From the NCBI GenBank assembly GCA_965204375.1, contig OZ241986.1, positions 576,001 through 640,000 of the forward strand: a stretch of 64,000 nt of DNA, written 5' to 3'. The DNA comes from Candidatus Latescibacterota bacterium. GTDB taxonomy: Bacteria; Latescibacterota; UBA2968. Below are positions 7,829 to 55,853 of this stretch, piece after piece. Made by a program: the position numbers and the translations under genes. Position 1 is the first letter of the stretch; every line of letters starts with the position of its first letter. Under the pieces are notes generated by a model. It saw only the letters and a list, made by a program, of their open reading frames with translations, was not told the origin of the DNA and did no database searches.

Positions 7829-7974
7829 TGCGTCCTCCAAAGGGATTCAAATCAGGGCATAAAAATGTGCCCGGGTTATATTTTAGCAAGGAAAAATATA
7901 ATAGGGCAAAAAAACGAGCAAGGATTTTGTTGGAATTGAAAAAAAAAGCAGGGCTGGGGATCGAGGTGGGCTGA

Positions 7975-9237
7975 CTACTCATTACTGGTGGTATCGGGCT
8001 GTGAGGTATTGATGGTATCGGGCCGTGGCGTATTGATAGTGTCAGATTGCGAGATATTGATAGTATCGGGTTGTGGCGTATTAATGGTATCAGGCTGTGG
8101 CGTATTGATAGTGTCGGGCTGTAGGGTTTGAAGTAAATCAGTCAATGATTTTATCTGATTGAACTGGACATTGCTTTCCCAACCGAGGATGGTTTGCAAA
8201 ATGCTTCGCCGCCCCACATAGATACGCAAATCAGCGGTAGATCCAAAGCTCAGGGCAATGGGGGTTTGTTTGACGGCGACTTCCAGGCCAAAGGTGCGAA
8301 CATTGCCTTCAATGACGGCATATCCGTGGACTTCTGATACTTCTCCATGACCGATAAACCCCTCGCGGTCGGTAAAGAGATTGCTCAATATTTCAACGGG
8401 CTGACCGGGGCGTACCTTCCACGCACTGGTTTCGGCCATCCAGGCACCGATGACTGTACCTTCGCCTTCTCCTGCGATGATCATGACAACGGCACCCTGA
8501 CTGGCCTGCATGCCCGGATAGAGATCCTGGCGGGCCACCACACCATTGACTGGCGCGCGCAGGGTTGCGCGTTCGAGGGCTTCGTGCGCGGCTTCGAGAT
8601 TGTGTTTTGCCTTGTCCAGAGATGCCTGGGTTTGGCGCATTGCCGCTTCGGCCTGTTGGATTTCAGCGGGCAGGGGACCGCGTCTTACCAGGTTGAGATT
8701 TTCGAGTTCGACTTTTAAGCTGGCCTCAGCGAGGTCGTAATTGGTTTTGGCGCGTTCGTAGTCTTCCTGACTGAAGAGCCGCTGGCCTTCATAGAGAGCC
8801 TGGGCGCGTTTGAGGTCCTGTTGCCGAGCTGTGAGGTTGATGCGTGCTTGCTCAACGCGCGATTCGGCTATTTTGATTTCTTCGGGGGTTGGCTGTGCGC
8901 GCAGCAGGGCAAGTCGCGCCTGTGCAGCTTCGAGGTTGGCCATTTCCCGTTTGATCTCTTGTTCGGCGGTTGCTGCAGCTGCTCTCAAATCGCCGTCGTA
9001 GAGCCGCGCGACGGGTTGACCGGCTATGACGGAGTCGCCGGGTTCTGCGAGGATTTCGTGGATGTCCTGGCTCATGGGCGAATTGATATATATTTTGTCT
9101 CCTGGTTCTACAATGCCTTGAGCCATCACGATATCGTCAATCTGGATCAGTGCAAGGGCGAGTGCAATGGCCCCAATTACACCGAAGACCCAGAGTAGCC
9201 ATTTGACTATTCTGCCTTTTCGGCGACGACGCATCAT
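7975..9237 (-). CDS. HlyD-family periplasmic adaptor (membrane fusion protein) with repetitive C-terminal tail
   Basis: Basic N-terminus plus TM helix, lipoyl half-motifs (EPGDSVIAGQPV; LRAPVNGVV), long coiled coil. Confidence 0.88.
   Translation of the reverse strand: MMRRRRKGRIVKWLLWVFGVIGAIALALALIQIDDIVMAQGIVEPGDKIYINSPMSQDIHEILAEPGDSVIAGQPVARLYDGDLRAAAATAEQEIKREMANLEAAQARLALLRAQPTPEEIKIAESRVEQARINLTARQQDLKRAQALYEGQRLFSQEDYERAKTNYDLAEASLKVELENLNLVRRGPLPAEIQQAEAAMRQTQASLDKAKHNLEAAHEALERATLRAPVNGVVARQDLYPGMQASQGAVVMIIAGEGEGTVIGAWMAETSAWKVRPGQPVEILSNLFTDREGFIGHGEVSEVHGYAVIEGNVRTFGLEVAVKQTPIALSFGSTADLRIYVGRRSILQTILGWESNVQFNQIKSLTDLLQTLQPDTINTPQPDTINTPQPDTINISQSDTINTPRPDTINTSQPDTTSNE
7991..8122 (-). 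repeat. 24-bp coding tandem repeat, ~5.5 units (QPDTINTP-like)
   Basis: Units start at 7991, 8015, 8039, 8063, 8087 and 8111. Confidence 0.9.
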
Positions 9238-9259
9238 GGGATTATTTTTTTCCTTTTGC

Positions 9260-9287
9260 TTGACAGATTTTGGCAGAATGGTATATT
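9260..9287 (+). promoter_or_regulatory. Sigma70-type promoter of the tRNA
   Basis: TTGACA-16 nt-TATATT with extended TG. Confidence 0.65.
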
Positions 9288-9314
9288 TTACAATTCTATA
9301 CCAAAATCCTGGAT

Positions 9315-9387
9315 GGGCGCGTAGCTCAGGCGGTAGAGCAACGGCCTTTTAAGCCGTGGGTCGCAGGTTCGAATCCTGCCGCGCTCA
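9315..9387 (+). tRNA. tRNA-Lys(TTT); CCA not encoded
   Basis: Acceptor stem GGGCGCG/CGCGCTC, anticodon arm ACGGC-CTTTTAA-GCCGT, T-loop GGTTCGAATCC. Confidence 0.96.
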
Positions 9388-9399
9388 CTATTACAAAAC

Positions 9400-9432
9400 G
9401 GCCCTGAATCACAATGATTTCAGGGCTTTTTT
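9400..9432 (+). terminator. Terminator after the tRNA
   Basis: gccctgaa...ttcagggc followed by a T tract. Confidence 0.75.
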
Positions 9433-9542
9433 CGCGCCCCTTGCGAGTAAATATAGTAAATAAATCTATTATATTGTTTTGCAAAGGTCAAGAAAGTTAT
9501 AAATAAAAATTATGATTTGGGACCGCTATATGGCGAGGTAAC

Positions 9543-9571
9543 TTGACATCACAACGGGTATTAAATATATT
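9543..9571 (+). promoter_or_regulatory. Sigma70-type promoter of cysH
   Basis: TTGACA-17 nt-TATATT; AGGAG RBS before ATG 9599. Confidence 0.7.
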
Positions 9572-9598
9572 GTGGATCAACGAACTCAAGAATAGGAG

Positions 9599-10345
9599 AT
9601 GTTTGTGCTTACCCGAGAAAAATTAAACGCGCAGTCCCTGGCTTTTGAAACGGCAGCTCTGGAAGATATTTTGATCTGGGCATGGGAGACGTTGGGGTCT
9701 CGCGTGGCGTTTGGTACTGCTTTTGGTGCCAGCGGCATGGTTTTGCTCGACGTGATGCAAAAGGTTGCGCCGCAAATTCCCGTATTTACAATTGACACGG
9801 GTTTTCTGTTTCCCGAAACTCTGAGTTTGATCGACCGCGTGGAGGCACGATATGGGATTGAGACTGAGCGGGTGCATTCCCGTTTGAGTGTTGAAGAGCA
9901 AGCGCGTGATTACGGTGATGAACTCTACAAGCGGGATGCCGACCGCTGTTGCTGGTTGCGAAAAGTCGAGCCTTTGCAACGCAAGTTGTCCCGGTTGAAT
10001 GGCTGGATTAATAGCCGCCGGCGAGATCAGGGCGATACCCGCAGCCAAATTTCCATTCTGGAATATTATGAGACAGATGGTCGCGCGTTGCTCAAATTGA
10101 ATCCCATGGCACCGTGGACGCGCAAACAGGTCTGGGATTATATTACTGAACACGATGTGCCCTATAATCCCTTGATGGATCAGGGCTTTGCCACGATAGG
10201 GTGCTGGCCCTGCACCAAAGCTGTGGATGCAGATGTAGATGAACGCGCCGGTCGCTGGGCGGGTTCAGATAAGACAGAGTGCGGTATTCACACTTTTTTG
10301 CAGCCGATTGATGCGGCGGTTAATCCCGTGCCTGTTGAATCTTGA
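9599..10345 (+). CDS. cysH: APS/PAPS reductase (Fe-S APS-reductase type)
   Basis: IDTGFLFPET, CCWLRKVEPL, GCWPCT, ECGIH. Confidence 0.95.
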   Translation: MFVLTREKLNAQSLAFETAALEDILIWAWETLGSRVAFGTAFGASGMVLLDVMQKVAPQIPVFTIDTGFLFPETLSLIDRVEARYGIETERVHSRLSVEEQARDYGDELYKRDADRCCWLRKVEPLQRKLSRLNGWINSRRRDQGDTRSQISILEYYETDGRALLKLNPMAPWTRKQVWDYITEHDVPYNPLMDQGFATIGCWPCTKAVDADVDERAGRWAGSDKTECGIHTFLQPIDAAVNPVPVES

Positions 10346-10490: not shown

Positions 10491-10976
10491 ATGGTGTCTA
10501 ATAGCGAGCGCAAGTATTATGACCGTTTTCTTCAAAACAATTTGCTGAGTCAGCGTTACCGCATCAAATTAAGCGATGGAGAAACGCTGGTAGGTGTTCC
10601 AAAAGCATATAGTGTCGTTAACCTTGAAAATCCAACGTTTTTTATTAACGGTTCAGAGTTTTCTTTACGCGACGTTGTAGAGGCGAAAGAGATATCTGAT
10701 ATTACAATTTACGCGACCAAACAACTGGATGGCTATACTTGTGGACTTGACCCCAGGAGCAAAGCAGCCATAAGAGCTCAAATTCCCCAAGAGTCGGTCC
10801 CGGTTACAAGCGTGTTTATTTCTTGTGATACCAAATCGGATTTTGAGAGTCTTCATGGTTCAGTTTGGAAACATATTGCAGAGCTTTTAACGAGCCTTTC
10901 AGAAGAAAAATTGCAAGAACTTGGCAAGGTCGTATTTGTAGATTCAAAGACGATGAAAGTATTATTTGAGCTTTGA
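10491..10976 (+). CDS. Hypothetical protein
   Basis: 161-aa ORF with strong AGGAGG RBS; no recognised motif. Confidence 0.7.
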   Translation: MVSNSERKYYDRFLQNNLLSQRYRIKLSDGETLVGVPKAYSVVNLENPTFFINGSEFSLRDVVEAKEISDITIYATKQLDGYTCGLDPRSKAAIRAQIPQESVPVTSVFISCDTKSDFESLHGSVWKHIAELLTSLSEEKLQELGKVVFVDSKTMKVLFEL

Positions 10977-10983
10977 GAGCGAC

Positions 10984-11475
10984 ATGTCTAAAAGAGCCAA
11001 TCTTTATACGGGTAGAGCAGGTCATCTTGCGGTTATGGCCGAACTTCTTCTTCGCGGGTGGAACACAGCCATTCCAGAAGTAGATGTGGGTGACGACATT
11101 TTTGTAGTACGCGATAGCGATGGGAACCTGCAACGCGTACAGGTAAAGACTGCTGTAGCAAAACCGTTGAAGTCTGGAGCACATAATGCACTATTCAATC
11201 TTTCGCTCTCGCAACTTAGTACGCCAGTAAATCCAGAAGTAATTTACGTTTTTGCAGTTCGACTTCACAGTCATTGGGATGCTTTTGTGGTGATTGACAG
11301 GGAAACTTTAAGAGAAACTTTAGCTGAGGAACTCAGTGGGTCTCACATTCAGATCAGAAGCGCCGACAGGCTCTTATTGCGGTTGCGTTTCACGGGCACA
11401 GGTGTCACTTGTGGGCAAAGCGACTTATCGCAATACAGAAATAACTGGACGCGCTTTCCCATCGTTGAGCACTGA
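10984..11475 (+). CDS. Small PD-(D/E)XK-fold endonuclease-like protein
   Basis: GRAGHLAVMAELLLRGW...DVGDDIFV...RVQVKT. Confidence 0.7.
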   Translation: MSKRANLYTGRAGHLAVMAELLLRGWNTAIPEVDVGDDIFVVRDSDGNLQRVQVKTAVAKPLKSGAHNALFNLSLSQLSTPVNPEVIYVFAVRLHSHWDAFVVIDRETLRETLAEELSGSHIQIRSADRLLLRLRFTGTGVTCGQSDLSQYRNNWTRFPIVEH

Positions 11476-12295: not shown

Positions 12296-14374
12296 ATGGA
12301 TTACAAAGAACTCAAAATGCATCAGACGGTTTTGTTGGATCTCTATAAATCCTTAGATAATGCCCTTGAGAAAGAGAGCGATGAAATTCCGGAAGACGTA
12401 AAGCAGAGTCAAGAGAATATCGCGGCGGAAAAATTTCTACTTGCCATCGTTGGGGAAGTAAAGGCGGGTAAATCAACCTTTATCAATGCAATTCTTGGAG
12501 AGGCAATATTACCTTATGACACCTTACAAGCTACCTCTGAAATAGTTGAAATATACCACTCTGAAAAAAAGGAAGTTCAAGTAACCTTTGCCAATGGTAA
12601 AACGCAAGCTGTTGAGGATGACCCACAAACACCCGAAAATGAAGCGGTACCATTTCTTAAAAAGATTGCTTCTGTCAATGAGGAATACCGTGGCATTCCA
12701 ATCGTTCAGGTCAATAGATTCTTGATTGATCATTATAGCGAATCAGAGGGAAAAGCTGTATTTGAAAAGTCGGAATTAGAGGATTTCATTTTTGACCCTG
12801 GGCTTGAAAATATATACAAATTGGAGACAGAGGTATTTGGAGACAAAATTCGCAAATATATTGCGAAGCATATTTCCTGTGATGAGATTTCCGAAAGGGT
12901 TACTCTCGGTTATCCACATGACTTTTCTGAGTTCAAGCATTTCAGGATTGTAGATACGCCGGGGATCAATGCAATTGGCGGTATAGAGAATCAAACGAAG
13001 GAGTTCATCAAACAAGCCGATGCGGTTATATATCTCCATAATGCAAATCAATTAGAAAGTAAAGCACTTCGCAATGCTTTGGAGAATGAACTTCCTAACA
13101 GGGTTAAAGATCGTCTGATACTCGTCCTGACCCATAGAAGCGAAAAATATTATCCTGGTGAAGATGAACATGAGAGAATATTGGAGGAGATCAAAAGGCT
13201 TTATCCTGAAATCGGATCAGGTGACATCTTTTTTGTGGATAGCTTGACTGAACTATATTTGAAAGCGTTCTATGGGAAATCAATGGATGAAATCAATGCT
13301 ATGCGGAGACAAGACGCGCAACTAAGAAGGCTAACTTCTGATTGTGTTGAGGTGGCTGATGGTAATGCCTATGGTCTTCTTGAGCTATTAGAAGAGCAGT
13401 CCAATTTCAAGGAGATTCGCAAAAGAATCGAAAGAGATGCACAAAATTCCGCTTCTATACAAATGAAGGATTTTGCCAGTGACATACAAGAGCAATATGA
13501 AGTTCTTGACAATAAAATTAGCGGACGGATAGAACCTCTCAAAGTGAAATATCAAGCCCCTCAGTCTTTTGCATCGGAGATACAGAAGCAGAAACATGAA
13601 ATGGATACAATGAGAAGTGATTACAATAATTTTACATCTGAGCTGATTGCAGAATTCTCTTCTCGCGATATGAACAGCAGGTATTATCAAAAAATAGAGC
13701 AAATAGTAAATAAATATCGCAATGAGATTAACCAAAAAAAATTCAATCCAGACCATCACAAACAAAAAACCGTTGAGGCTTATGTGGAGACATTGAGAGA
13801 TAATTATGGTGATGAAATGACTAAGTTCGTTGATTCACTAAAGGCAGACTTCAAAAAAAGAATAGCGGATAGAGATTTTGAAGTACAAAGTGATTACTCA
13901 ATAACCGTGCCAAAGATATCAGTAGGTAGTGTATGGGAGAAAGCATTAAATACAGCTAACAAAAAAATAAAAAAGCAAGTAGATAAAGTGGACAGCGATC
14001 AAGGTCTTTTAAGTACCCTTTTCCACTTTTTGACGCTGTTTATATTTGATGAGAGTGATGAAAAAAAAGAAAAAATAAGGAAAAAATTTCCACAGCAGCT
14101 TTGGAAAGAGATGCAATCGCCGTTTGTAAAACAATTAGACACACATCTGACACGAATGCAGGAAAATATTGATCAGTTAATAAATGATTTTTGTAAACAT
14201 TATCAGTCTAAATTCAATGGAGAACTTCTGGAACGAAAACGGTATGTGGAAAAACTTGAGAACGAGAAAAAAACAAGTGAGGAATTAGAAAAAGAGATTT
14301 CAACCTTAGAGACGCAAAAAAAAACGATCGAGGACAATATCGAGATGTGTATAAAAATCAGAGGGGAGTTGTGA
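12296..14374 (+). CDS. Bacterial dynamin-like GTPase
   Basis: G1 GEVKAGKST, G3 DTPG, variant G4 THRSE, long helical trunk, hydrophobic segment GLLSTLFHFLTLFIF, C-terminal coiled coil. Confidence 0.88.
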   Translation: MDYKELKMHQTVLLDLYKSLDNALEKESDEIPEDVKQSQENIAAEKFLLAIVGEVKAGKSTFINAILGEAILPYDTLQATSEIVEIYHSEKKEVQVTFANGKTQAVEDDPQTPENEAVPFLKKIASVNEEYRGIPIVQVNRFLIDHYSESEGKAVFEKSELEDFIFDPGLENIYKLETEVFGDKIRKYIAKHISCDEISERVTLGYPHDFSEFKHFRIVDTPGINAIGGIENQTKEFIKQADAVIYLHNANQLESKALRNALENELPNRVKDRLILVLTHRSEKYYPGEDEHERILEEIKRLYPEIGSGDIFFVDSLTELYLKAFYGKSMDEINAMRRQDAQLRRLTSDCVEVADGNAYGLLELLEEQSNFKEIRKRIERDAQNSASIQMKDFASDIQEQYEVLDNKISGRIEPLKVKYQAPQSFASEIQKQKHEMDTMRSDYNNFTSELIAEFSSRDMNSRYYQKIEQIVNKYRNEINQKKFNPDHHKQKTVEAYVETLRDNYGDEMTKFVDSLKADFKKRIADRDFEVQSDYSITVPKISVGSVWEKALNTANKKIKKQVDKVDSDQGLLSTLFHFLTLFIFDESDEKKEKIRKKFPQQLWKEMQSPFVKQLDTHLTRMQENIDQLINDFCKHYQSKFNGELLERKRYVEKLENEKKTSEELEKEISTLETQKKTIEDNIEMCIKIRGEL

Positions 14375-14994
14375 TGGAACTCATCTACACTGAGCACATA
14401 TTCGCTGATATAGAATCTCTGGTACAAAAAATTGAAACGTATTTCAATGATCTTGACTCAGAGAAGATCGAAAGCGAAGTATTTGCATCGAGAATCGCTA
14501 ATGAGTTGGCTACCCGTCTCGAAAATATCAATGGCGTAATCCAGACAACACTGCTGACATATCTGGACAAAGATGCGCGAAAAGAGATTTCAGACTGGGG
14601 GCCAGCGGATCAGAATCGGTACTATGATAAGGGAATCCGCGAAAAGGTCTCATCACAAATTTGTGAGACAGATTCCTTTTCTCCTAAAGTTTGGCCCAAG
14701 AAATACATCAAAATTGCTTCTGGTGTTGTTGCTGCCGGAGGACTCTATCGCGCCTTTTCATCTCCTGTTTCCTTATCTTCTGGGATGTTTATTTCTGGGA
14801 TGTTTATTGTCGTTGTGGCAGCAGGTATGTTTTTTTTAATTCCTCGTGTCGTGGATAAGCACAATAAGAGTAAGACTTTAGAGGAATTGGGTGCTTATCT
14901 TGATGCTGTCGAAAAAAGATACAAAGACCAGGCCCAAGAAGTTATTGATGAGTATGTCTCTCTATTCAACGAAATAATACCTAAAAAGGAATAA
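14374..14994 (+). CDS. Hypothetical membrane protein (helical, with hydrophobic hairpin)
   Basis: TGATG overlap with the dynamin stop; hydrophobic IASGVVAAGGLY and GMFISGMFIVVVAAGMFFLI. Confidence 0.8.
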   Translation: MELIYTEHIFADIESLVQKIETYFNDLDSEKIESEVFASRIANELATRLENINGVIQTTLLTYLDKDARKEISDWGPADQNRYYDKGIREKVSSQICETDSFSPKVWPKKYIKIASGVVAAGGLYRAFSSPVSLSSGMFISGMFIVVVAAGMFFLIPRVVDKHNKSKTLEELGAYLDAVEKRYKDQAQEVIDEYVSLFNEIIPKKE

Positions 14995-14999
14995 GGACA

Positions 15000-17900
15000 G
15001 TGGCAAATCTGAACGATAAATCATTAGCCCTTGAAAGACCAAAGGTTCTATCCCAAGAAGATGGTGCCAAAGAACTTGAAGAAATTTTCTCAGAACTTCT
15101 TCCTTGGGCTATCGAAGCAAAAGATGATGCTGCACTTTTAAGAGAGAATACCATACAAAGTCGAGATGACATTGAAACATTTCTCGGTTCCATTTATTTG
15201 TTCCATGTTGGAGAAATTTCTATTTCCACAGAAACCCAGGATGCAGCTGACTTGATCTATAAAAGACACCAGGCCGCAATTATTGCCGCCTATCAGTCAG
15301 GCTATACACTTACGACGATCATTGCGGGAAATGGTGGTACTGTTGATATTTTTCTCGGAGTATGTAGTGAAGAGGATCGGGATGTGAAAGATGTGTTCAG
15401 TGAGCAATTGCAGGGAATTTATCCCGGAAAAGGCATTAAATTTGTGGATGAATCTATAAAGGATAGGCTGGAAAAAAAGAAATATGAACATGGCGGAGTT
15501 CTTACAGGTATCCCGACACAGAAAATAGACGAAGAAAAGCAGACATTCGATCTATCTTCGGTGATAAGAAGCATGAATGGTCAGGAATTTCTTCTTGCGA
15601 TTGTTTTCCGCCCCATTGAAAAAAAGCATGAAGCTACAGAACAACTTCTCAAATTAATGGAGTTAAAAGATCTGTGCCATGCATTGGCAAACAGGAGAAT
15701 CAGTGTCGATGAGAATGTAAGTGAAAGTGGGAGTCAATCTGACAGTAAAGGTAAAAGTGGGGGGCAGTCGAAATCACCAAACATTTTCAAATCATTTGTA
15801 CAAAGTCTTTGGTCTGGGCTGCAAACAGATACCGAAGGCTGGTCTAAAACGACAATAAATACTGAAGGCTGGTCAAAAAGTAGCGGGCGAAGTTTTTCTC
15901 TTGAACAGCCAGACACTTTTGCGATGGAGTTGGAAAATATCGCGGATAAGTTGATCACCCGATTGCGCAATGGTCTAAACATCGGACTTTGGGAAAGTTT
16001 TATCACCTACGCGACCACATCCTCCACGGCTGCGCAGATTTTATCTGGCACTTTGGCAGGAGAACTGATCAAGGCTGATCCTGAAGCACTGCCTATGCGA
16101 AATGTTGCCGGTCAACTATCTCCTGCCGTTCCGCTCTATATTCCCAGAAAGCGGGATGGAAAATCTCTTATCGAAGGTAATAAATTGTTGTCGTTCGTGT
16201 CGAGCGATGAAGCAGCACTGCTCATGGCTCCTCCGCTTTCTTCTGTCCCTGGCTATGATATCCGCGTCAAGCCCGCATTGAGTCTGACAGACACTACAGA
16301 CCATAGGGGGCATCCAATTGGGCGTATTTCTGAACATGGAAGGGAAGTGCAAGACTCTGAGTTTAAAATATCAAAAGAGGATGTCCGAAAGCATATCTTT
16401 GTTTCTGGTCTTACTGGCTCGGGTAAGACGACGACGGTTAAGCACATTCTAAATTGTATTGATGATACGTCCTTTCTGGTGATTGAATCCGCCAAGAGAG
16501 AATACCGCAGATTATTGAGAGAGGAGAAATACGATGAAAGACTCGACGTCTATACCGTTGGAGATGCAAATATTTCACCGATACGCCACAATCCTTTTAT
16601 GGTGCTTCCTGGGGTGTCACTCATCATCCATATTGACAATCTCAAATCCATTTTTTACGCGAGTTTTTCACTCTATGGGCCTATGCCCTATATCCTCGAA
16701 AAATGTATTTACAACATCTACGAGGACCGTGGATGGAATCTGACTACGGGCAAACACCAGCGCGTCACAATAGAAACTTTTGAGGATTGCAATAATCACC
16801 GCTTTATCTATCCTACGATTAGAGACTTGATTGATGAAGTGAACCGATATGTGGAGGATGAATTGGAATATGACGGGGAACTTAAGGACAATATCCGCAG
16901 TGCGATTGTCGCCCGTCTTGAATCCCTGGCCGTTGGCGCAAAAGGGTTTCTCTTTAACACACATGAGGCGATTGACATAAAGGATTTTCTAAATAGAAAC
17001 GTTGTGCTTGAACTCGAGTCTCTTTCCGATGATGACGATAAAGCATTCTTTGTCGGTTTGATACTTGCTTTGGTAAGCGAATATCGACAATCTAATGCCC
17101 GTCAAAGCGAGAGCGTTCAGGATACCAGGGATGCCAGGGATGATCTACGGCATGTGTTGGTTATTGAAGAAGCGCACAGGTTGCTTAAAAACGTACAGAC
17201 TGAGCGCACCCATGAAATGCTGGGCAATCCCAAAGGGAAGGCCGTGGAGTCTTTCTGCAATCTCATTGCCGAGATGCGGTCTTATGGTCAGGGTGTGATT
17301 GTTGCAGAGCAAATCCCCACCAAAATAGCCCCTGATGTGATCAAGAATACCAATACCAAAATTATTCACAGGCTCGTTTCTCTGGATGACCAGATTGCCG
17401 TAGGTACGGGATTGGGGTTGGATGAACACGAATGTCGATATCTAAACCAGCTTTCTGCGGGCACGGCACTCGCGCATAAAGAAGGGATGTCAAAACCTGT
17501 TGAAATCTCCGTCTTCAACGAACTGCGGAATGATCCGATGGGAGACATACGAATCAAACGTTTTGGTAGTGAACGCACCCCAAATTTGCCATCGGAATTG
17601 GCACTACACGAAAGCGGACTGCTGGAGAGCCAGCATCTGAGAGCGATTGCTCTCAGATTGGTCAATTCGTTTTTTATGTCAGATATTGAACTCAACAACC
17701 TATTGTCTGATGCAATAACGACAGTCAAAAAAGGAGAGCAACTTACGTATGTAAAGGATGAAACTATAGAACATGCTTTGAAGGAACGGTTTTATCGAAT
17801 TTTATTTTCAGCAACTTTGGGTTTTGTAAATGAAAAAGCGATTGATGAAGAGATTTTAAAGATTTTTAATCGGCTTTGGCAGGATCGTGATCGTTTTGAT

Positions 17901-18104
17901 CGCGGGCGATTCATAGACTCATTTGACGAGTGGTTGGGTGATTGCAGCCGCAATCGCATCAAGGAGAATATGGCGAATGATGCCATTCTCGAGAGCCGAG
18001 CAAAAAAAATGGAAATTGAAAAAATCGTTGATAAGATGCAGCTCGCCGAGGACTTAGCAGCCAAACGCGAGGTCATGGACGCGATAAGCAAGAGGGTAAT
18101 GTAA
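15000..18104 (+). CDS. HerA/FtsK-superfamily (DUF87-like) ATPase, 1034 aa
   Basis: KHIFVSGLTGSGKTT Walker A, LVIEEAHRLL Walker B, EMRSYG arginine finger, IVAEQIP, NTNTKIIHRL. Confidence 0.9.
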   Translation: MANLNDKSLALERPKVLSQEDGAKELEEIFSELLPWAIEAKDDAALLRENTIQSRDDIETFLGSIYLFHVGEISISTETQDAADLIYKRHQAAIIAAYQSGYTLTTIIAGNGGTVDIFLGVCSEEDRDVKDVFSEQLQGIYPGKGIKFVDESIKDRLEKKKYEHGGVLTGIPTQKIDEEKQTFDLSSVIRSMNGQEFLLAIVFRPIEKKHEATEQLLKLMELKDLCHALANRRISVDENVSESGSQSDSKGKSGGQSKSPNIFKSFVQSLWSGLQTDTEGWSKTTINTEGWSKSSGRSFSLEQPDTFAMELENIADKLITRLRNGLNIGLWESFITYATTSSTAAQILSGTLAGELIKADPEALPMRNVAGQLSPAVPLYIPRKRDGKSLIEGNKLLSFVSSDEAALLMAPPLSSVPGYDIRVKPALSLTDTTDHRGHPIGRISEHGREVQDSEFKISKEDVRKHIFVSGLTGSGKTTTVKHILNCIDDTSFLVIESAKREYRRLLREEKYDERLDVYTVGDANISPIRHNPFMVLPGVSLIIHIDNLKSIFYASFSLYGPMPYILEKCIYNIYEDRGWNLTTGKHQRVTIETFEDCNNHRFIYPTIRDLIDEVNRYVEDELEYDGELKDNIRSAIVARLESLAVGAKGFLFNTHEAIDIKDFLNRNVVLELESLSDDDDKAFFVGLILALVSEYRQSNARQSESVQDTRDARDDLRHVLVIEEAHRLLKNVQTERTHEMLGNPKGKAVESFCNLIAEMRSYGQGVIVAEQIPTKIAPDVIKNTNTKIIHRLVSLDDQIAVGTGLGLDEHECRYLNQLSAGTALAHKEGMSKPVEISVFNELRNDPMGDIRIKRFGSERTPNLPSELALHESGLLESQHLRAIALRLVNSFFMSDIELNNLLSDAITTVKKGEQLTYVKDETIEHALKERFYRILFSATLGFVNEKAIDEEILKIFNRLWQDRDRFDRGRFIDSFDEWLGDCSRNRIKENMANDAILESRAKKMEIEKIVDKMQLAEDLAAKREVMDAISKRVM

Positions 18105-18739
18105 TGGCAGTTGAAACCGCAGTTGCGGCTATAGCAGCAGAAGGCGTGGCGGAAGTGGCGGTTGCCGAAATGGCGTCTGAGGTCATTGCCGAATCTTCAA
18201 TCAGCGGGGCAGCCGAATTGGACGGAATCCTTTCTGCCATTGAGAAAGAGGTCCCGCGAGAAATCGTCAACAAACAGGTTGACGCGGTACTTCAAGATAC
18301 GGCATTACGCAGTGAACTCGTCCCGCAAATCGAAACCAAGAACCAGCATTTGGAAGGGACGCTACACCCTGAAACGGATGTTCCCTTTGAATCCAAATGG
18401 GTCGAAACTCGTGAAGGCTACAAAGAAGGCGTGTTTCCTGATTTTTCTGCATCTTATGAGACTCAGCTTCCCGAGAATTTACATGAAGCAAGTGATTATG
18501 AGCAGGCCACGTATTGTAACGAACAATTGGGTCAAGCTTCTGAGAATGGCAATCTCAATACAGAGCAATTCACAGACAGGCAATTGGAACAGATTCGCAA
18601 TGGAGATAAGCCCGAGGGATATACTTGGCACCACCATGAGGACCTGGGACGCATGCAGTTAGTGCCTTCAGATATTCACGAAAAAACAGGGCATACAGGT
18701 GGTCGCAGCTTATGGGGTGGTGGGAGTGAAGCTCGATAA
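18104..18739 (+). CDS. WHH-family HNH/EndoVII nuclease toxin
   Basis: NQHLEGTLHPETDVPF...FPDF...GYTWHHHEDLGRMQLVPSDIHEKTGHTGGRSLWG; TAATG overlap with the ATPase. Confidence 0.9.
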   Translation: MAVETAVAAIAAEGVAEVAVAEMASEVIAESSISGAAELDGILSAIEKEVPREIVNKQVDAVLQDTALRSELVPQIETKNQHLEGTLHPETDVPFESKWVETREGYKEGVFPDFSASYETQLPENLHEASDYEQATYCNEQLGQASENGNLNTEQFTDRQLEQIRNGDKPEGYTWHHHEDLGRMQLVPSDIHEKTGHTGGRSLWGGGSEAR

Positions 18740-18754
18740 AAAAGAGAGCATACT

Positions 18755-19153
18755 ATGAATTTGAAATGGAAATACGTTGAGCCATTGGATGAGAGCCAAT
18801 TGTCTAAAATTGAGGATCATTTTGGCCTGAGCTTGCCGGATGATTACAAGAAATCACTCTCGGAATGCAATCAGGGAAAACCCACCTTAGAACGTTTTGA
18901 TACAGAATTTAAAAAGGAGTGTGTTCTCGATTATATGATTGATCTCTCGGATATGGTTTCCCTCGCCAAAACTATGTCTGCCGATTACGACATTGAGAAT
19001 TTGATACCCATATCACGCGACCCATTTGGAAATCTGATTGCCTTTCGGATAGCAGGACGGCAGGTGGATGGAGTGGTGTTTTGGGATCATGAAACAAATA
19101 AAATTTCCAAAATTTCAGGTAGTTTTACAGAATTTATCGAAAAGCTATACTGA
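18755..19153 (+). CDS. SMI1/KNR4 (SUKH) immunity protein
   Basis: KIEDHFGLSLPDDYK...LIPISRDPFGNLIAF...VVFWDHE...SFTEFIEKLY. Confidence 0.92.
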   Translation: MNLKWKYVEPLDESQLSKIEDHFGLSLPDDYKKSLSECNQGKPTLERFDTEFKKECVLDYMIDLSDMVSLAKTMSADYDIENLIPISRDPFGNLIAFRIAGRQVDGVVFWDHETNKISKISGSFTEFIEKLY

Positions 19154-19197: not shown

Positions 19198-19935
19198 ATG
19201 AGTGAATTGAGAACGATTATGAACACCATCCATACCATAGAAGACCTGATACAACTCCTGGACGAAAATCCCCAGTGGACCGAAGCCATGCGTGCCCGGC
19301 TATTGACGCGCGAACTGATTGAACTGCCCGAAAAGTTCACACAGTTTGCCGTCGAGATGAATAGCTTTGTTGCAGAGGTAAAGAGCTTCATCGAGGCCAC
19401 GAACCGGCGTTTTGAAAGCCTTGAACAGTACCTTGACCAGTCCATTGAGGCCACGAATCGGCGTTTTGATACACTCGAAAATAGAGTGAAGTCCATCCAG
19501 GATGATGTAGGGATACTCAAAGGTGCCCACGCCCGCAGTGCCGCGCTTAGAGAGGCCACCTCCATTGCCAGGGACATCGGCCTTCAGCGGACGAAAAACC
19601 TCACTCAGGACGATCTGTGGGCACTGACCGACCTCGCCGATACATCGGGTATTCCCGTAAACGAACTGAGGAGTTTCCGCCGCGCCGATCTGATCATGGA
19701 GGCCACCGATCTGAATGGCGAAACTTGCTACATCGCCGTGGAAATTTCCTTTACCGCCAATGGCCGGGACACCACTCGCGCCCTCCGAAACGCCGATTTT
19801 TTGACGAGGTTCACGAGTAAGCAATCCTATGCCGCTGTGGCTGGTCTGTACCGAGATGACCGCATACAGGACGAAATCGAATCTGGAGAAGTATTCTGGT
19901 ATCAACTGGATCCGGAAGTCTTGGAAGCAGAGTAA
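19198..19935 (+). CDS. Coiled-coil protein with degenerate PD-(D/E)XK-like C-terminus
   Basis: Internal repeat IEATNRRF twice; ADLIM...YIAVEIS...DTTRA. Confidence 0.7.
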   Translation: MSELRTIMNTIHTIEDLIQLLDENPQWTEAMRARLLTRELIELPEKFTQFAVEMNSFVAEVKSFIEATNRRFESLEQYLDQSIEATNRRFDTLENRVKSIQDDVGILKGAHARSAALREATSIARDIGLQRTKNLTQDDLWALTDLADTSGIPVNELRSFRRADLIMEATDLNGETCYIAVEISFTANGRDTTRALRNADFLTRFTSKQSYAAVAGLYRDDRIQDEIESGEVFWYQLDPEVLEAE

Positions 19936-19985
19936 CAACCCATGCCCTTTCTTCCCTACACAATAACAACGGCTAAAGGCCATTT

Positions 19986-20930
19986 ATGCGTCACAAAAAG
20001 CTATCAAAGCGTTCTCGCATCCGACACTCGATTCTCGGTGCAATAGGCAATACGCCGCTGTTGCGTATCCGGGACCTGGGAGACAAGATCAATCCCGAGG
20101 TTGAAATCTGGGCGAAGTTGGAGATGTTTAACCCGGGCGGATCGGTCAAGGATCGCCCCGCTTTGCAGATGATTGAAGATGCCGAAAAAGCAGGGGTGCT
20201 CACGCCGGAGAAAGTGATTTTGGATTCGACTTCGGGCAATACGGGTATTGCGTATGCCATGATCGGCGCAGCAAAGGGATACCGCGTCGAGTTGGTTATG
20301 CCCGAGAGCGTGAGTATTGAGCGGCGATACGTCATTCAGTCTTATGGATCTGATCTGGTGTTGAGCGACCCTCTTGAAGGTTCAGATGGTGCGATTTTGA
20401 AATGTCGAGAAATGCTGGCTGCAAATCCCGATTTGTATTACAAACCCGATCAGTACAATAATCCATCCAATTCCAGGGCACATTATTTGCATACGGCACC
20501 GGAAATCTGGTCGCAGACACAGGGGAGGGTGACGCATTTTGTGGCGACGTTGGGCACGAGCGGTACTGTAATGGGGACTGGCAGAGGTCTGAGGGCATTT
20601 AATCCCGATGTGCAGATTATTGCCGTTGAACCACCCGAATTTCACGGGATTGAGGGCCTGAAAAATATGGATGTGTCTATTGTGCCAGGTATTTACGATC
20701 CATCGGTGTGGGACCAGAAGATTCGGATTGAAACAGAAGATGCGTATGACATTGCGCGATGGTTGACGCGAGATATGGGTTTGCTGGTGGGGCAGTCTTG
20801 CGGTGCGGCGATGGCCGCTGCTCTAAAAGTTGCCGAGACTCTGGATGAAGGGGTCATCGTCACTTTGTTTCCCGATAGTGGTGAAAAGTATATGAGTACG
20901 CCTCTGTGGCGGCTCGATCCCGAGAGGTAG
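19986..20930 (+). CDS. cysM: PLP-dependent cysteine synthase, probably the CysO-dependent CysM type
   Basis: NPGGSVKDR, STSGNTG, GTSGT; adjacent to mec and cysO. Confidence 0.85.
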   Translation: MRHKKLSKRSRIRHSILGAIGNTPLLRIRDLGDKINPEVEIWAKLEMFNPGGSVKDRPALQMIEDAEKAGVLTPEKVILDSTSGNTGIAYAMIGAAKGYRVELVMPESVSIERRYVIQSYGSDLVLSDPLEGSDGAILKCREMLAANPDLYYKPDQYNNPSNSRAHYLHTAPEIWSQTQGRVTHFVATLGTSGTVMGTGRGLRAFNPDVQIIAVEPPEFHGIEGLKNMDVSIVPGIYDPSVWDQKIRIETEDAYDIARWLTRDMGLLVGQSCGAAMAAALKVAETLDEGVIVTLFPDSGEKYMSTPLWRLDPER

Positions 20931-20932
20931 AG

Positions 20933-21388
20933 ATGTTTGACAAAGCGATTTGGGACGCCATGTTTGTCCATGCACAGCGGGAATACCCGGCTGAGTGTTG
21001 CGGTATTGTGACCGAAGATGCTTCGGGGGGGCAGGTGATTCATCCGTGTGAGAATATCCAGGATAAATTGCACGCTGCCGATCCCGAAACCCATCCGCGC
21101 ACTTCCCGGACAGCCTATCGCATGAACGATATGCAGGTGATGAAAATTCAATCGGAGACGGAGCAAGCGGGTGGGCGGATTGTCGCGATCTATCATTCGC
21201 ATATCGATGTAGATGCTTATTTTTCTCAAGAGGATCAAGATGCGGCGACATTTTTTGGTGAGCCAACCTATCCGGGCGTGGTTTATCCCATCATTCCAGT
21301 AAAAAATGCCCGGGTGGATATCGGCGGGGAAAAAGTTTTTCAATGGCGTGATTCGTCGTCAAAATTTGAGGAAGTGGAAATTCGGTGA
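20933..21388 (+). CDS. JAB/Mov34 metallopeptidase (Mec-like)
   Basis: YPAECCG; JAMM motif IYHSHIDVDAYFSQED. Confidence 0.88.
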   Translation: MFDKAIWDAMFVHAQREYPAECCGIVTEDASGGQVIHPCENIQDKLHAADPETHPRTSRTAYRMNDMQVMKIQSETEQAGGRIVAIYHSHIDVDAYFSQEDQDAATFFGEPTYPGVVYPIIPVKNARVDIGGEKVFQWRDSSSKFEEVEIR

Positions 21389-21410
21389 AATGTAAAAAAG
21401 GAGGTAACAA

Positions 21411-21686
21411 ATGGCTGTCACAGTTCGGATTCCAACGCCGTTGCGCAAATTTACAGGTGATCAATCCGATGTAGAAGTGCAGGGCGCGACGGTTGGGGAA
21501 GCTATCGACAATCTCGAAGCACAGCATGCGGGCATTAAGGAACACATGGTCGATGAGTCGGGTGCTATTCGACGCTTTGTCAATGTGTATGTCAACGAAG
21601 AGGATATTCGCTTTCTGGATGGACCCGATACGGATCTCAAAGACGGCGACCAGGTGACTATTGTGCCTGCGATTGCCGGTGGGTAA
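21411..21686 (+). CDS. Ubiquitin-like sulfur carrier (CysO/MoaD/ThiS family)
   Basis: VRIPTPLR...RRFVNVYVNEEDIRF...PAIAGG C-terminus. Confidence 0.92.
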   Translation: MAVTVRIPTPLRKFTGDQSDVEVQGATVGEAIDNLEAQHAGIKEHMVDESGAIRRFVNVYVNEEDIRFLDGPDTDLKDGDQVTIVPAIAGG

Positions 21687-21752
21687 AAAACGGTCAGATA
21701 TCAATCCTCGCCGTTTTTATGTGCTGTGCGGGGAATAACCACTAACCACTTC

Positions 21753-21780
21753 GTAAGGGCGGGTTTCAAACCCGTCCCTA
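21753..21780. repeat. REP-like palindrome, degenerate copy
   Basis: gtaagggcgggtttcaaacccgtcccta; same core as 33398..33426. Confidence 0.7.
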
Positions 21781-21789
21781 ACTAATCTT

Positions 21790-22221
21790 ATGATGCACAT
21801 TTCCGCTAAAGGTGACTATGGTTTGCGCGCGGTCTTAGACCTGTGTCTGCACGATGGGAAAGGGCCAATTTTGCGTACCGATATCGCTGCGCGGCAACAC
21901 ATCCCCGAAGCGTATCTGGTGCAACTGCTCAATCTTTTGCGAAAAGCCGGTTTGGTACACAGCATTCGCGGTCCCAAAGGCGGACATGTGTTGTTGAAAC
22001 GTCCAGATGAACTGACCGTGGAAGAGGTGTTGGCTGCTCTGGAGGGGCCTGTCAATTTGGTGGATAAGCGCGAAAAGGCTGAGGATGCGGGAACAGATGT
22101 GCTCAATGACGTGTGGGAAGCTGTGGGGACCGCTGTACACGATGTCCTGTCATCGGTGACATTTGCCGATTTGTGCCGAAAGTACCGGGCGCGTCAGATG
22201 CCTGTCACATTCCGGATTTGA
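21790..22221 (+). CDS. Rrf2-family regulator (CymR-like)
   Basis: KGDYGLRA...IPEAYLVQLL...SIRGPKGG; next to cysK; lacks the IscR cysteine triad. Confidence 0.9.
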   Translation: MMHISAKGDYGLRAVLDLCLHDGKGPILRTDIAARQHIPEAYLVQLLNLLRKAGLVHSIRGPKGGHVLLKRPDELTVEEVLAALEGPVNLVDKREKAEDAGTDVLNDVWEAVGTAVHDVLSSVTFADLCRKYRARQMPVTFRI

Positions 22222-22223
22222 TT

Positions 22224-23144
22224 ATGGATGGCGCGAAAACTGGACATACGGTGTTGGACCTCGTGGGCAACACGCCCATGGTACAACTGAACTCGGTGGG
22301 ACCTGAAAATGGTGCTCAGCTTTGGGCGAAATTGGAATTTTTTAACCCGGCGGGCAGCGTAAAAGATCGCACGGCTCTCGCTATGGTTGAGGCCGCAGAA
22401 GAAAATGGGCAACTCAAACCCGGTATGACCATTGTGGAACCGACCAGTGGCAATACGGGTATTGGCCTTGCCATGGTGGCTGCGATTAAAAATTATCGGC
22501 TGATCATTACCATGCCCGAAGGCGTCAGCGACGAGCGCACCCGATTGCTCAAAGCTTATGGTGCCGAGGTTGTGCTAACACCCGTCCGCGAGGGGATGCG
22601 GGGGGCAATTGAAAAAGCGTGGACGCTTAAGGACAAAAATTGTTTTATTCCGATGCAGTTTGAAAATCCCGCCAATCCCGAGATTCATCGGCAGACCACT
22701 GCCAGCGAGATGATTTCACAACTCGAGGGCGTTCCCGATGCTTTTGTCGCAGGTGTGGGAACGGGGGGGACCGTGACCGGTGTGGGCGAGGTTTTTAAGC
22801 AGGTGCGATCAGATGTCGTGGTCGTCGGCGTAGAGCCAAGGGATTCTGCGGTGTTATCGGGTGGAGAACCCGGTCCCACTGAGATCGATGGTCTGGGCGC
22901 AGGCATGATTCCAGATGTGCTGAATACGGAAATACTGGATCGCGTGATTGCCGTATCCAATTCGGATGCGCGCAAGATGTCAAAGCGATTGGCGCGCGAA
23001 GAGGGCTTGCTGGTGGGGATTTCGTCGGGTGCAGCAGCACACGCCGCCGCTGTTGTCGCTTCTGGTATGAGACCTCAACAGACGGTCGCAACGGTATTGT
23101 GCGATACCGGTGAACGGTATTTGGGCACGTTTTTATTTGGGTGA
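22224..23144 (+). CDS. cysK: Cysteine synthase A
   Basis: NPAGSVKDR, PTSGNTG, QFENPAN, GVGTGGT. Confidence 0.92.
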   Translation: MDGAKTGHTVLDLVGNTPMVQLNSVGPENGAQLWAKLEFFNPAGSVKDRTALAMVEAAEENGQLKPGMTIVEPTSGNTGIGLAMVAAIKNYRLIITMPEGVSDERTRLLKAYGAEVVLTPVREGMRGAIEKAWTLKDKNCFIPMQFENPANPEIHRQTTASEMISQLEGVPDAFVAGVGTGGTVTGVGEVFKQVRSDVVVVGVEPRDSAVLSGGEPGPTEIDGLGAGMIPDVLNTEILDRVIAVSNSDARKMSKRLAREEGLLVGISSGAAAHAAAVVASGMRPQQTVATVLCDTGERYLGTFLFG

Positions 23145-54724: not shown

Positions 54725-55853
54725 AACTTTTGAATATACCTCTAAACGCCTTGAGTCAGGTAAAAAATGTGATTGCGTTTGCATAGGGTGTGGTGAATCG
54801 CTTATCCTGAAACGTGGAGATAAAAAACAGTGGCATTTTGCTCATTGTGCAAAAACTTCCTGTGGTGGAGAGACTTATATCCACAAAGTAGTTAAAACGT
54901 GGATTGCTGAGAAATTGATAGGCCAAATCCTTTCTTTACCAGTACATCCAGAATTAGATAGCCCTAAAAAATTTTTAGTTGAAAGTGGCGAGATAGAAAA
55001 ATATAACAGTGCTATAAAACGGCAATATGACGTTGTGCTTAAGGGAATTTTTTCGTACGGTGAAACAGATCAAGTAAATCATGGTGAATTGATATTTGAG
55101 GTGCATTATAGTAACCCCAAAGATGATTGTTTTAAGTTGCAAGTGCAAGAATGGAAACTTTACGTTCTTGAGGTCGATGCTAAAACATTCTATGGTGATG
55201 GACGAGAAAAATTTACGATAGAAACACTTTCAGAAAACAGCGAGTGGACATGGCTTACGGACAACCAAAAACTTTGGGCTGAATATGGCTTGAAAAATAG
55301 TGTACGAGATATTATAGCAAACTGGATTACGGAAGAAACATGGATAGACGAAGAAGTAGAAATTCGACACGGTCCCTCAAAATTTATACGTACAGGTTAT
55401 GGACGTTTTAGCGTTGAACGACAAGTTGAAACAAAAATAATAAAGAAGGGGCCCTTTTATCGGCTGTTTGGAGTTGTCGATAGATTTGATAATGACGGAC
55501 CTTTGAGAGATTACGGATTTTATATTTGGGATTTTTTGGAGAGGCACAACACAACGCCATACTATTTTCATGCAGATAAGTGTTGGAAAAATAGAAAAAG
55601 CGATATAACTGGCAAAATTTACGATATTGTTTTTCAAGGAGATTTTGTAGGTCGGAGTAACAATGCACGTAAAAAGTCCTGTTTGGTATTCCAGTTAGTA
55701 GATAGTCTTGGTGAATATGATGACGATTTTAAGCAAGAAATACGAAAAGCTAAATTCTGTATTCTTGAGGTTGATATACATGGATTTTTTGCTGACGGAC
55801 TTGAACCTCCCACGCATAAGAGATTTAAGGAAAATACACAGTGGGTATGGTGA
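52944..55853 (+). CDS. IS1182-like DDE transposase read through in frame into a 5'-truncated CoiA-like Zn-finger/nuclease gene
   Basis: GRPS, IDST, DPDA, ADTHY, YRWRAGIEAT; past the IR: CDCVCIGCG...KRG...WHFAH...ETYIHK...YDV...IFEVHYS. Confidence 0.8.
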   Translation: MLTLRDHDRAAPPDFWIQLGAKRKQLLDRSWAGVFREYLLLELPVEALAPHFSKNFGRPSKDLHVVLGALVLQQLHDLTDAQTVEAIAFNIAWQYALDVRSEADCYFCERTLRTYRRLVIQHHLDEVLFQSLTDKLIHSVGVHTRKQRIDSTGVQSFMRNLTRLGILVESMSKFLRQLRRTCPELYQELDCDLWRKYVARTGDGCFALTTPSQSKCRLLEAAADIDALLKLFCPTEAAQLDSYHLLAGVFEEQCQRIQGASGQSSIQMRDPHAIPCDNTLNPADPDASYNKHRGVGYLIQVMETFCDDTDKDDEAQDATSGVSKVALPDLITHIAVGKMTVHDSKALLPAIQDTQARGVMPKHLLADTHYGSTKCIAQAKDRGVTLLAPSMPPKGKGQGKLTLEDFEVDASGHIQRCPAGHAPLEMSVSKKRLQVRFAPDLCDQCPLQEHCPIPGKARLQYTHERVKQRARRLFEQSDVFRDQYRWRAGIEATISRLKHQMGLAHLRVRGQGAVKYRVLLSALGLNIHRVAVYRGSFYPQKLFGRLLSALQGHQRVIGPYKPISGRMNRRFEVPTTRGYRGLSPLILRLFADPSTFEYTSKRLESGKKCDCVCIGCGESLILKRGDKKQWHFAHCAKTSCGGETYIHKVVKTWIAEKLIGQILSLPVHPELDSPKKFLVESGEIEKYNSAIKRQYDVVLKGIFSYGETDQVNHGELIFEVHYSNPKDDCFKLQVQEWKLYVLEVDAKTFYGDGREKFTIETLSENSEWTWLTDNQKLWAEYGLKNSVRDIIANWITEETWIDEEVEIRHGPSKFIRTGYGRFSVERQVETKIIKKGPFYRLFGVVDRFDNDGPLRDYGFYIWDFLERHNTTPYYFHADKCWKNRKSDITGKIYDIVFQGDFVGRSNNARKKSCLVFQLVDSLGEYDDDFKQEIRKAKFCILEVDIHGFFADGLEPPTHKRFKENTQWVW

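Follow-up and report, generated by a model that had tools for sequence, protein, structure and literature searches.

We studied a five-gene cassette at positions 12296-19153 of a stretch of DNA from a Candidatus Latescibacterota bacterium (contig OZ241986.1; the whole analyzed stretch, 64,000 nucleotides long, is referred to as the window). The open reading frames (ORFs) showed five same-strand, tightly coupled genes in the order D-T-A-X-Y, where D stands for a dynamin-like GTPase, T for a membrane hairpin protein, A for an ATPase, X for a nuclease and Y for an immunity protein (Table 1). D and T overlap in a TGATG (14372-14376) and A and X in a TAATG (18102-18106), while T and A are separated by 5 nt (14995-14999) and X and Y by 15 nt (18740-18754). 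A GAGG-type ribosome-binding site precedes the ATG of D at 12296, and T has an alternative, longer start, a GTG at 14347. The GC content was 0.37-0.41 across 12-16 kb and 0.45-0.46 across 16-19 kb, as compared with about 0.5 in most of the window. An earlier sequence-only reading of this DNA had described five co-oriented, coupled genes in AT-richer DNA, in agreement with these junctions and this GC profile. Promoter and terminator scans of the cassette gave no signal above that of shuffled sequences. The identical gene order was present in dozens of loci of other phyla (see below), which confirmed that the cassette is a real unit, beyond chance adjacency.

Table 1 Coordinates of the cassette genes and their domains in the window
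Feature	Position	Strand	Evidence
D: dynamin-like GTPase, 692 aa, no transmembrane (TM) segment	12296..14374	+	Dynamin_N, LeoBC and BDLP matches
T: two-helix membrane hairpin protein, 206 aa	14374..14994	+	hydrophobic stretch in the window protein and nearly all orthologues
A: ATPase, 1034 aa, GTG start	15000..18104	+	Pfam DUF87/HerA, VirB4-like folds
A, N-terminal domain, aa 1-430, VirB4-NTD-like (NTD, N-terminal domain)	15000..16289	+	AlphaFold2 (AF2), Foldseek, VIA
A, P-loop ATPase domain, aa 428-850 (Walker A 470-479, Walker B 720-726)	16281..17549	+	VIA, invariant motifs
A, extra C-terminal helical domain, aa 851-1034, predicted docking site of the N-module	17550..18104	+	AF2, complex model
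X: small nuclease	18104..18739	+	Pfam
X, conserved N-terminal module (N-module), aa 1-66	18104..18301	+	common to gene-4 proteins with five C-terminal classes
X, WHH/colicin-DNase-type nuclease domain	18419..18739	+	Pfam Colicin-DNase, WHH
Y: SUKH (SMI1/KNR4) immunity protein, 132 aa	18755..19153	+	Pfam SUKH_6, SMI1_KNR4

A scan of one genome per species, in which 53 of 149 pattern matches were confirmed, gave a sample of 52 loci. The presence of D, T and X was scored by profile searches of the stop-to-stop frames, and the loci with enough flanking DNA were taken as evaluable. Of the 47 evaluable loci, 43 contained D and 37 contained T; X was found in 47 of the 50 loci with enough downstream DNA, including L022, where the stop-to-stop scan showed the gene to be present. 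The most constant part of the cassette was thus A followed by X, with D and T usually preceding A. An all-against-all clustering of the ORFs showed D, T, A, X and Y as the only genes common across phyla; other neighbors common to several loci corresponded to lineage-specific synteny. Besides Latescibacterota, the hosts were Pseudomonadota (Advenella, Halopseudomonas, Thiofilum, Pseudomonas, Vibrio metschnikovii and a Legionella metagenome-assembled genome, MAG), Bacteroidota (Tenacibaculum and others), Binatia, Cloacimonadota, Ignavibacteriota, Calditrichota, Planctomycetota and WOR-3, together with three MAGs labelled Clostridia or archaea, whose binning is to be taken as tentative. The proposal of the sequence-only reading depended on homologues co-occurring in other genomes, and they recur in many phyla. 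The tabulated neighborhoods of the 52 loci also showed the expected trio of dynamin, membrane protein and ATPase with interchangeable toxin-immunity pairs, save that T is not always kept, being absent from 10 of the 47 evaluable loci.

Genes 4 and 5 carry this interchangeability. In Pfam searches, X matched Colicin-DNase (1.8e-31, aa 106-199) and WHH (1e-18, aa 167-206), and Y matched SUKH_6 (1.5e-18) and SMI1_KNR4 (3.9e-18). The C-terminal parts of the gene-4 proteins fell into five classes: WHH (X1), LHH (X3), X2, Endonuclea_NS_2 (in L035) and one unassigned (in L027). Class X2 had no Pfam match but presented invariant D, E, T and K positions; its Atlas leads were Tox-REase families, all sub-threshold, and its profile gave nothing below an E value of 0.29 against PDB sequences. 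The first ~60 residues were common to all classes. A profile search with this N-module, covering 1.84 billion proteins, retrieved 41 cluster representatives, which matched from residue 1 in nearly all cases and were mostly 186-282 aa long. A Pfam scan of 34 N-module proteins showed WHH/Colicin-DNase in eight, LHH in eight, NS_2 in two, HNH in one and a pyocin DNase in one, the rest having no domain; a FliH match on one of the 34 was taken as spurious. The N-module of X itself matched no Pfam family, and no known trafficking domain was found in X by Pfam.

The class of Y followed the class of X. X1 (WHH) was paired with Y1 (SUKH_6) in 18 loci, X2 with Y2 (a protein of ~106 aa with a weak DUF7832 match) in 14, and X3 (LHH) with Y3 (SUKH_5) in 12, i.e., in 44 of 44 class-assigned loci, with zero cross-pairing. 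On a quick tree of A the distribution of effector classes needed 10 changes, the minimum being 4, and near kin could differ in class: some Tenacibaculum had WHH, and others, like Aquimarina, had LHH. There was one X-Y pair per locus, without arrays of orphan toxin or immunity cassettes at the loci, and each of the six genomes searched contained exactly one N-module ORF. Genes 4 and 5 therefore form a toxin-immunity pair that is swapped between loci while the N-terminal module in front of it stays the same, and the Pfam matches and the co-variation of classes bear out the WHH-SUKH pair proposed earlier.

The ATPase showed the closest resemblance to VirB4. Sequence searches of A gave a Pfam match to DUF87/HerA (3e-6), an NCBIfam match to 'ser_rich_anae_1' (aa 391-809, 3e-27), weak NCBIfam matches to CedD and to the VirB4 of an integrative and conjugative element (ICE), and PADLOC HerA models at aa ~460-850 only. 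Its Walker A (G470-T479) and Walker B (E723, E724) were invariant in 40 sequences; together with the G1 and G3 of D (see below) and the WHH motif present in X, the motifs reported at first as intact were all found, those of D and A being conserved among homologues. A has a single P-loop domain. The AF2 model of full-length A had a pLDDT (predicted local distance difference test) of 75.7, and residues 1-430 modelled alone reached 79.3, with a predicted template modelling score (pTM) of 0.78. With the N-terminal domain, Foldseek gave 12 matches at E ≤ 1e-3, all TrwK/VirB4 among those listed, and the wide VIA search placed TrwK/VirB4 first (Z 15.2, root-mean-square deviation (rmsd) 3.8, 253 residues aligned) and the next chain at Z 7.9. 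The best VIA match of the ATPase domain was DndH-C (Z 23.9, rmsd 3.9, 318 aligned), then the C-domain of VirB4 (Z 23.1, rmsd 4.2, 326 aligned), the type IV coupling proteins (T4CP) and HerA (Z 17-18), proteins of the SIR2-HerA, DUF4297-HerA and HerA-NurA types (Z 14-18), and FtsK and EssC/EccC (about Z 9). By its modelled folds, A is a member of the VirB4 family in both domains, within the HerA/FtsK superfamily. The superfamily had been correctly assigned by the sequence-only reading; the family is VirB4-like and not typical HerA/FtsK. Proteins of the A family numbered 1333 at E ≤ 0.001 among 7999 candidates scored.

Two additions distinguish A from the VirB4 fold. One is a disordered Ser/Thr/Gly-rich loop (aa 235-303, 15702-15908) inserted in the VirB4-like N-terminal domain, containing a TEGWSK tandem repeat with a tandem copy at 15824-15879; the loop was found, with variable length, in 40 of 40 aligned A homologues. 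The other is the C-terminal domain, all-helical in the AF2 model and the least conserved region of A. Co-folding of the toxin with the ATPase, suggested in the earlier reading, pointed to this domain as a partner of X. Three prediction runs with A 428-1034 and the 66-aa N-module of X gave complex scores of 0.83, 0.82 and 0.83, as compared with 0.00 for the highest-scoring of three controls; in the calibration, 58 of 80 solved complexes and 2 of 110 mismatched pairs attained this score mark. The runs shared at least 92% of the contacts, the pLDDT of the partner was at least 68, and residues 33-66 of X lay on residues 878-1033 of A, with a predicted interface comprising A 881-885, 933-941 and 993-996 and X 39-59. 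A helix in the N-module thus appears, in these models, to dock on the extra C-terminal domain of A. The N-module and its predicted docking would tie X functionally to A.

D matched Dynamin_N in Pfam (9e-20, 71.8 bits, cut-off 27) and, over its whole length (aa 15-673), the LeoBC profile of PADLOC (3.9e-21, 73.8 bits; PADLOC states no cut-off). Its sole sequence match in the PDB was the bacterial dynamin-like protein (BDLP) of Nostoc, 2j68 (5.5e-10). The G1 (GEVKAGKST) and G3 (DTPG) motifs were at least 90% conserved in 42 D sequences. With a Dynamin_N GTPase domain bearing G1 and G3, D is a bacterial dynamin-like protein (DLP). Among the five proteins, T presented a hydrophobic segment and D, A, X and Y none. 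This stretch of ~33 aa (aa 139-171, numbered on the longer GTG-start ORF) falls in a layout of a helical N-part, a hydrophobic hairpin of ~45 aa and a short helical C-part. The window T matched no Pfam family and no PADLOC model; its orthologue in L016 (Halopseudomonas xiamenensis) matched LeoBC positions 355-528 (E 1.8e-5), and the Atlas leads, both weak, were Fzo_mitofusin (0.80) and a LeoA helical domain (0.78). We also considered T as a fragment of D, but the hhalign probability of T against D was 0.8%, so that T is no detectable D fragment. The hairpin protein precedes a VirB4-like gene, as a VirB3-like small membrane partner would; a VirB3 role is a suggestion from this position only.

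T was dispensable in several lineages. L004, L005, L008 and L012 have A immediately after D, with all of D, A, X and Y intact. On the A tree, three of the four loci were sister to T-bearing loci, which indicates that T was lost at least three times with the other four genes kept. In two Latescibacterota loci T is intact and about 1.9 kb are inserted between T and A (L006, 8005-9904; L014, 7810-9699), comprising two extra ORFs of ~254 and ~290 aa without a Pfam family. Another variant, L043, has two full-length D genes (7588-9603 and 14487-16592) flanking A, and the frame of its gene 4 ends early.

The A tree (42 rows, quick IQ-TREE) conflicted with the taxonomy of the hosts, indicating horizontal transfer, and at the level of sequence comparison the cassette was shown to be, in all probability, horizontally mobile. 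Its distribution was patchy: the N-terminal domain of A was found in 13 of 168 Latescibacterota genomes, the window's own included, and in 5 of 20 other genomes of the window's genus. Three relatives presented reduced versions at the same site. G086 (locus L063) had lost D, T and A, in whose place stood a HicB-like ORF and a Sel1-repeat ORF, and had kept X (61% identity) and Y (90%); G088 (L064) had a scar joining aa 1-74 of D to aa 35-132 of Y; and G092 (L065) had fragments of A, fragments of X, and Y. Searches of E. coli genomes gave no DNA match to the cassette, and in the PLSDB plasmids no cassette was found but only distant relatives of A, at most 40% identical and none covering 80% of the query. 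Two unannotated fragments matching A were found in phage records.

In the window, the cassette lies between cysH (phosphoadenosine phosphosulfate (PAPS) reductase, 9599-10345) and a cluster of cysM (cysteine synthase), JAB and ThiS-like sulfur-carrier genes (19986-23144), and in five other Latescibacterota loci (L005, L006, L014, L034 and L052) it was likewise found at the cysH or cysM-JAB-ThiS-like region. L034 carries a cassette of another clade (X2 type, nearest to Binatia) ahead of the same cysM-JAB pair, suggesting a reused insertion site. Two overlapping ORFs at 10491-11475 (161 and 169 aa, the second with a weak PDDEXK_5 match) were 98-99% identical in G086, which lacks D, T and A, and are therefore outside the cassette. 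No integrase flanks the window cassette, and no direct or inverted flanking repeats (att sites) were found.

The flanks outside Latescibacterota were of a different kind. We scanned 104 of the 157 nearest flanking proteins at 24 loci, having dropped near-duplicate Binatia and Tenacibaculum flanks and the most distant loci; the values are raw counts. The commonest family was WYL (7 of 104 proteins), followed by WCX (5), and the others included Type III and Type II methyltransferases, ResIII, NERD with UvrD, PDC-S18, Cas1, Cas3-like proteins, integrases and an IS66 transposase. Regulators of the WYL type frequently govern defence systems, and a WYL-family gene was located 217-942 nt upstream of D in L016, L013, L017 and L039. 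In a Gelidibacter MAG (L046, 4150-19221), an A-like ATPase and a WHH nuclease that begins with the N-module motif were located between HsdR/HsdM/HsdS type I restriction-modification genes on one side and, on the other, a Piwi-domain protein resembling prokaryotic Argonautes (pAgo) followed by a 1084-aa protein; D, T and an immunity ORF were absent from this locus.

Our preferred reading, with roughly even odds, is that the cassette provides intracellular defence against phages or plasmids. In such a system X would be produced in a harmless X:Y complex, which would wait on the cytoplasmic tip of a ring of A. D with T would position or switch the machine at the cytoplasmic membrane, at points of entry of foreign DNA or of membrane disturbance by infection. 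On a trigger, ATP hydrolysis by A would pull the free N-terminus of X and strip off Y, or would feed DNA to the docked nuclease; the DNA would then be cut, and either the invader would be destroyed directly or the infected cell killed. The sequence-only reading had left a choice between a delivery machine and an abortive-infection system, and the evidence leans to the defence side of that choice without settling it. We lean this way because of the WYL, restriction-modification, Cas and pAgo neighbors; because every nameable effector domain is a nuclease, X2 having its Tox-REase leads; because each of the six genomes has one effector; because T is dispensable and was lost repeatedly; because no outer-membrane or periplasm-spanning part is conserved, though all the cultured hosts are diderms; and because the ATPase domain resembles the defence translocase DndH-C and D the LeoBC profile of Eleos.

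Several points weigh against a defence function. The counts of flanking defence genes carry no background comparison, and in the window's own lineage the neighbors are sulfur-assimilation genes, not defence genes. No homologues of Y1 or Y2 were found in the phage records. VirB4 ATPases function in secretion, and the gene directly upstream of A encodes a small membrane protein. The trigger and the way of removing Y are pure inference on our part. No defence system with an immunity protein of the SUKH type is known to us. WHH or LHH toxins with SUKH proteins, and a constant N-terminus followed by a variable toxin and its cognate immunity protein, are hallmarks of secreted polymorphic toxins in the available passages of Zhang, Iyer, Aravind 2011 and Zhang et al. 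2012. Since WHH, LHH, HNH and colicin DNase form one superfamily, as stated in the available part of Zhang 2011, the argument from nucleases only is also weaker than it seems.

These points lead to a possible but distinctly less likely alternative, an export or delivery apparatus for polymorphic nuclease toxins. Here A would recognize the N-module, strip Y and drive X out of the cytoplasm by way of, or next to, T hairpins arranged as a ring in the membrane, and D would remodel the membrane by vesicle formation or fusion, so that the toxin reaches neighboring cells while Y protects the producer and its kin. The gene layout is that of polymorphic toxins, the toxin and immunity families are the same as in known secreted systems (Zhang 2011 and 2012, in the passages available), both domains of A are VirB4-like, and in the model the N-module docks on A. 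The extreme N-terminus of X is conserved from residue 1, as an export signal would be, and in G086 and G092 Y has outlasted the rest of the cassette. There are also precedents for the steps required: available passages of PMC10240201 link dynamin-like proteins with vesicle secretion, and those of PMC10653861 describe export by T7SSb, the secretion system of type VIIb, of the nuclease EsaD bound to its immunity protein. Such an apparatus would nevertheless have to operate in diderm hosts with no outer-membrane or periplasmic component conserved in the clustering of the loci, and T, its sole membrane protein, was repeatedly lost with A, X and Y intact. The single effector per genome, the lack of orphan toxin or immunity arrays, the restriction of nameable effectors to nucleases and the adjoining WYL, restriction-modification, Cas and pAgo genes argue against it too, and a dynamin that, like dynamins in general, is cytoplasmic would be ill-placed to fuse the membranes of two cells. 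In a specific version, slightly less likely again, the cassette would be a minimal protein-export route: A would read the ~60-aa N-terminal signal, strip the immunity protein and push the nuclease out, with D and T contributing the membrane step by releasing vesicles or by forming a transient pore. If true, this route would add a new secretion system type to bacterial warfare in diderms, one without a known outer-membrane component.

An improbable alternative is a selfish addiction or stabilization module, or a DNA-handling machine of other purpose. In that case X-Y would be a toxin-antitoxin pair stabilizing a mobile island, and D, T and A would serve, for example, in DNA uptake or export or in the exclusion of conjugative DNA. 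The persistence of X-Y alone at the same site in G086 after the loss of D, T and A, the patchy occurrence in the phylum, the disagreement of the A tree with taxonomy and the weak matches of A to CedD and to an ICE VirB4 are consistent with it, as is a distant A relative within an MPF_T conjugation cluster of a Planktothrix plasmid. Contrary to this proposal, the N-module and its predicted docking link X to A, neither an integrase nor att repeats flank the window cassette, and no cassette was found on the PLSDB plasmids. That the genes are merely adjacent by chance, or are a decaying remnant with no joint function in this genome, is very improbable: deletions and fragments do occur at the same site in congeners, but the window has five intact ORFs with overlapping or near-abutting junctions and the gene order recurs across phyla.

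Whether it serves in defence or in export, the cassette is of a known kind, a toxin-immunity effector module coupled to a ring ATPase. With the polymorphic toxin systems (Zhang, Iyer, Aravind 2011; Zhang et al. 2012) it shares, as far as the available passages describe them, a constant N-module, exchangeable WHH, LHH and NS_2 domains and a SUKH gene directly downstream. It differs in its short toxins (about 160-280 aa), present once per genome, without orphan cassettes and with nucleases only; its N-module has no Pfam family, and the Zhang passages name no dynamin. At the gene level the cassette fits the definition of a polymorphic toxin system, apart from spare cassettes, which were not found, and export, which the linked VirB4-like ATPase would do no more than suggest.

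As to type IV secretion, A corresponds to its VirB4-family ATPase in both the N-terminal (Z 15.2 to TrwK) and C-terminal (Z 23.1 to VirB4) domains, and the bacteria-killing type IV secretion system of Xanthomonas and Stenotrophomonas (X-T4SS) has toxic effectors with immunity proteins, as does the cassette (PMC6759196, in the part available). However, VirB6, VirB8-10, a coupling protein and a relaxase were not conserved among the cassette loci by clustering and Pfam, and the C-terminal docking domain and Ser-rich loop of A were not covered by the matched VirB4 chains. T7SSb, in the available descriptions of EsaD/EsaG/EssC, likewise combines a HerA/FtsK-superfamily ATPase with an immunity-held nuclease bearing an N-terminal targeting region. 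The similarity of A to EccC/EssC was only about Z 9, as compared with Z 23 to VirB4; A has one P-loop domain and no TM segment, the hosts are diderm, and no WXG100 or LXG match was found by Pfam on X or on the 34 N-module proteins.

Eleos (LeoA + LeoBC) and DynA share with the cassette a bacterial dynamin-like GTPase in a defence-like setting, D resembling the LeoBC profile as given above. Eleos is a pair of dynamin-like proteins, LeoA and LeoBC, without ATPase or nuclease, whereas most cassettes have one full-size DLP (L043 has two) and add to it an ATPase of the VirB4 type, a nuclease and its immunity protein. In the PADLOC search of the five genes LeoA gave no match at E ≤ 0.01, and the sole other DLP-like match in the genome was far away and weak. 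SIR2-HerA, DUF4297-HerA and HerA-NurA resemble the cassette in having a ring ATPase, of one superfamily with A, by which a nuclease or NADase is carried or activated. A scored 36.2 bits against the NCBIfam HerA_antiphage cut-off of 800, its N-terminal domain is VirB4-like, its effectors are WHH, LHH, NS_2 and X2 in place of SIR2 or DUF4297, and the cassette has an immunity protein and a predicted attachment of the N-module to the C-terminal domain. DndFGH is represented by DndH-C, the best structural match of the ATPase domain, but the N-terminal domain, partners and effector differ; no Dnd family was found in Pfam, PADLOC and NCBIfam scans of the five genes.

PADLOC-DB v2 (2023 release) contained no model for T, X or Y of the window, and gave partial matches only for D and A (LeoBC, HerA, mad8). 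In the literature searched there was no description that combines a dynamin, a VirB4/HerA/DUF87 ATPase and a toxin-immunity pair, the scope of this search ending short of supplementary candidate lists and newer defence catalogues. The word 'dynamin' was absent from the available parts of Zhang 2012, Zhang 2011 and Kaur 2020, and a 2024 Dnd paper contained none of 'dynamin', 'VirB4', 'GTPase' and 'SUKH'. The statement of the sequence-only reading that no described system combines all these parts therefore holds within this scope, and the partner set of dynamin and VirB4-like ATPase, like the docking module, appears to be new within the literature and databases searched.

The cassette joins a bacterial dynamin, a VirB4-type motor outside type IV secretion and colicin-like nucleases with immunity proteins. 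If it acts in defence, it would represent a new way of arming and disarming a lethal nuclease, in which the immunity protein would be the safety catch and the ring ATPase both holder and trigger, and bacterial dynamins would gain a defined molecular partner in immunity. If it acts in export, it would be a new secretion route. In both cases the short docking module at the N-terminus of X could, with the site predicted for it on A, be used as a portable tag-and-dock pair.

Some further features were observed in and beyond the window. Between Y and cysM, the region 19198-19983 contains overlapping ORFs of 245 aa (positive strand) and 227 aa (negative strand) without a Pfam family, and a 37-nt near-repeat at 19389-19479; the positive-strand ORF had a weak JetA match (4.5e-4). 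A tRNA-Lys gene (TTT, 9315-9388) is located just upstream of cysH, and its 3' end was not seen to recur further along. On the Photobacterium damselae plasmid NZ_CP076735.1 (L066), a distant relative of A (28% identity over aa 101-869) follows a gene for a 1247-aa DUF2357 protein and overlaps by 1 nt a 213-aa hypothetical gene at its 3' side, with csm6 nearby; this cluster may be a second system built on the ATPase family of A. The window has a second GC-poor stretch at 55001-56000, with a GC content of 0.367 and a GC skew of 0.24.

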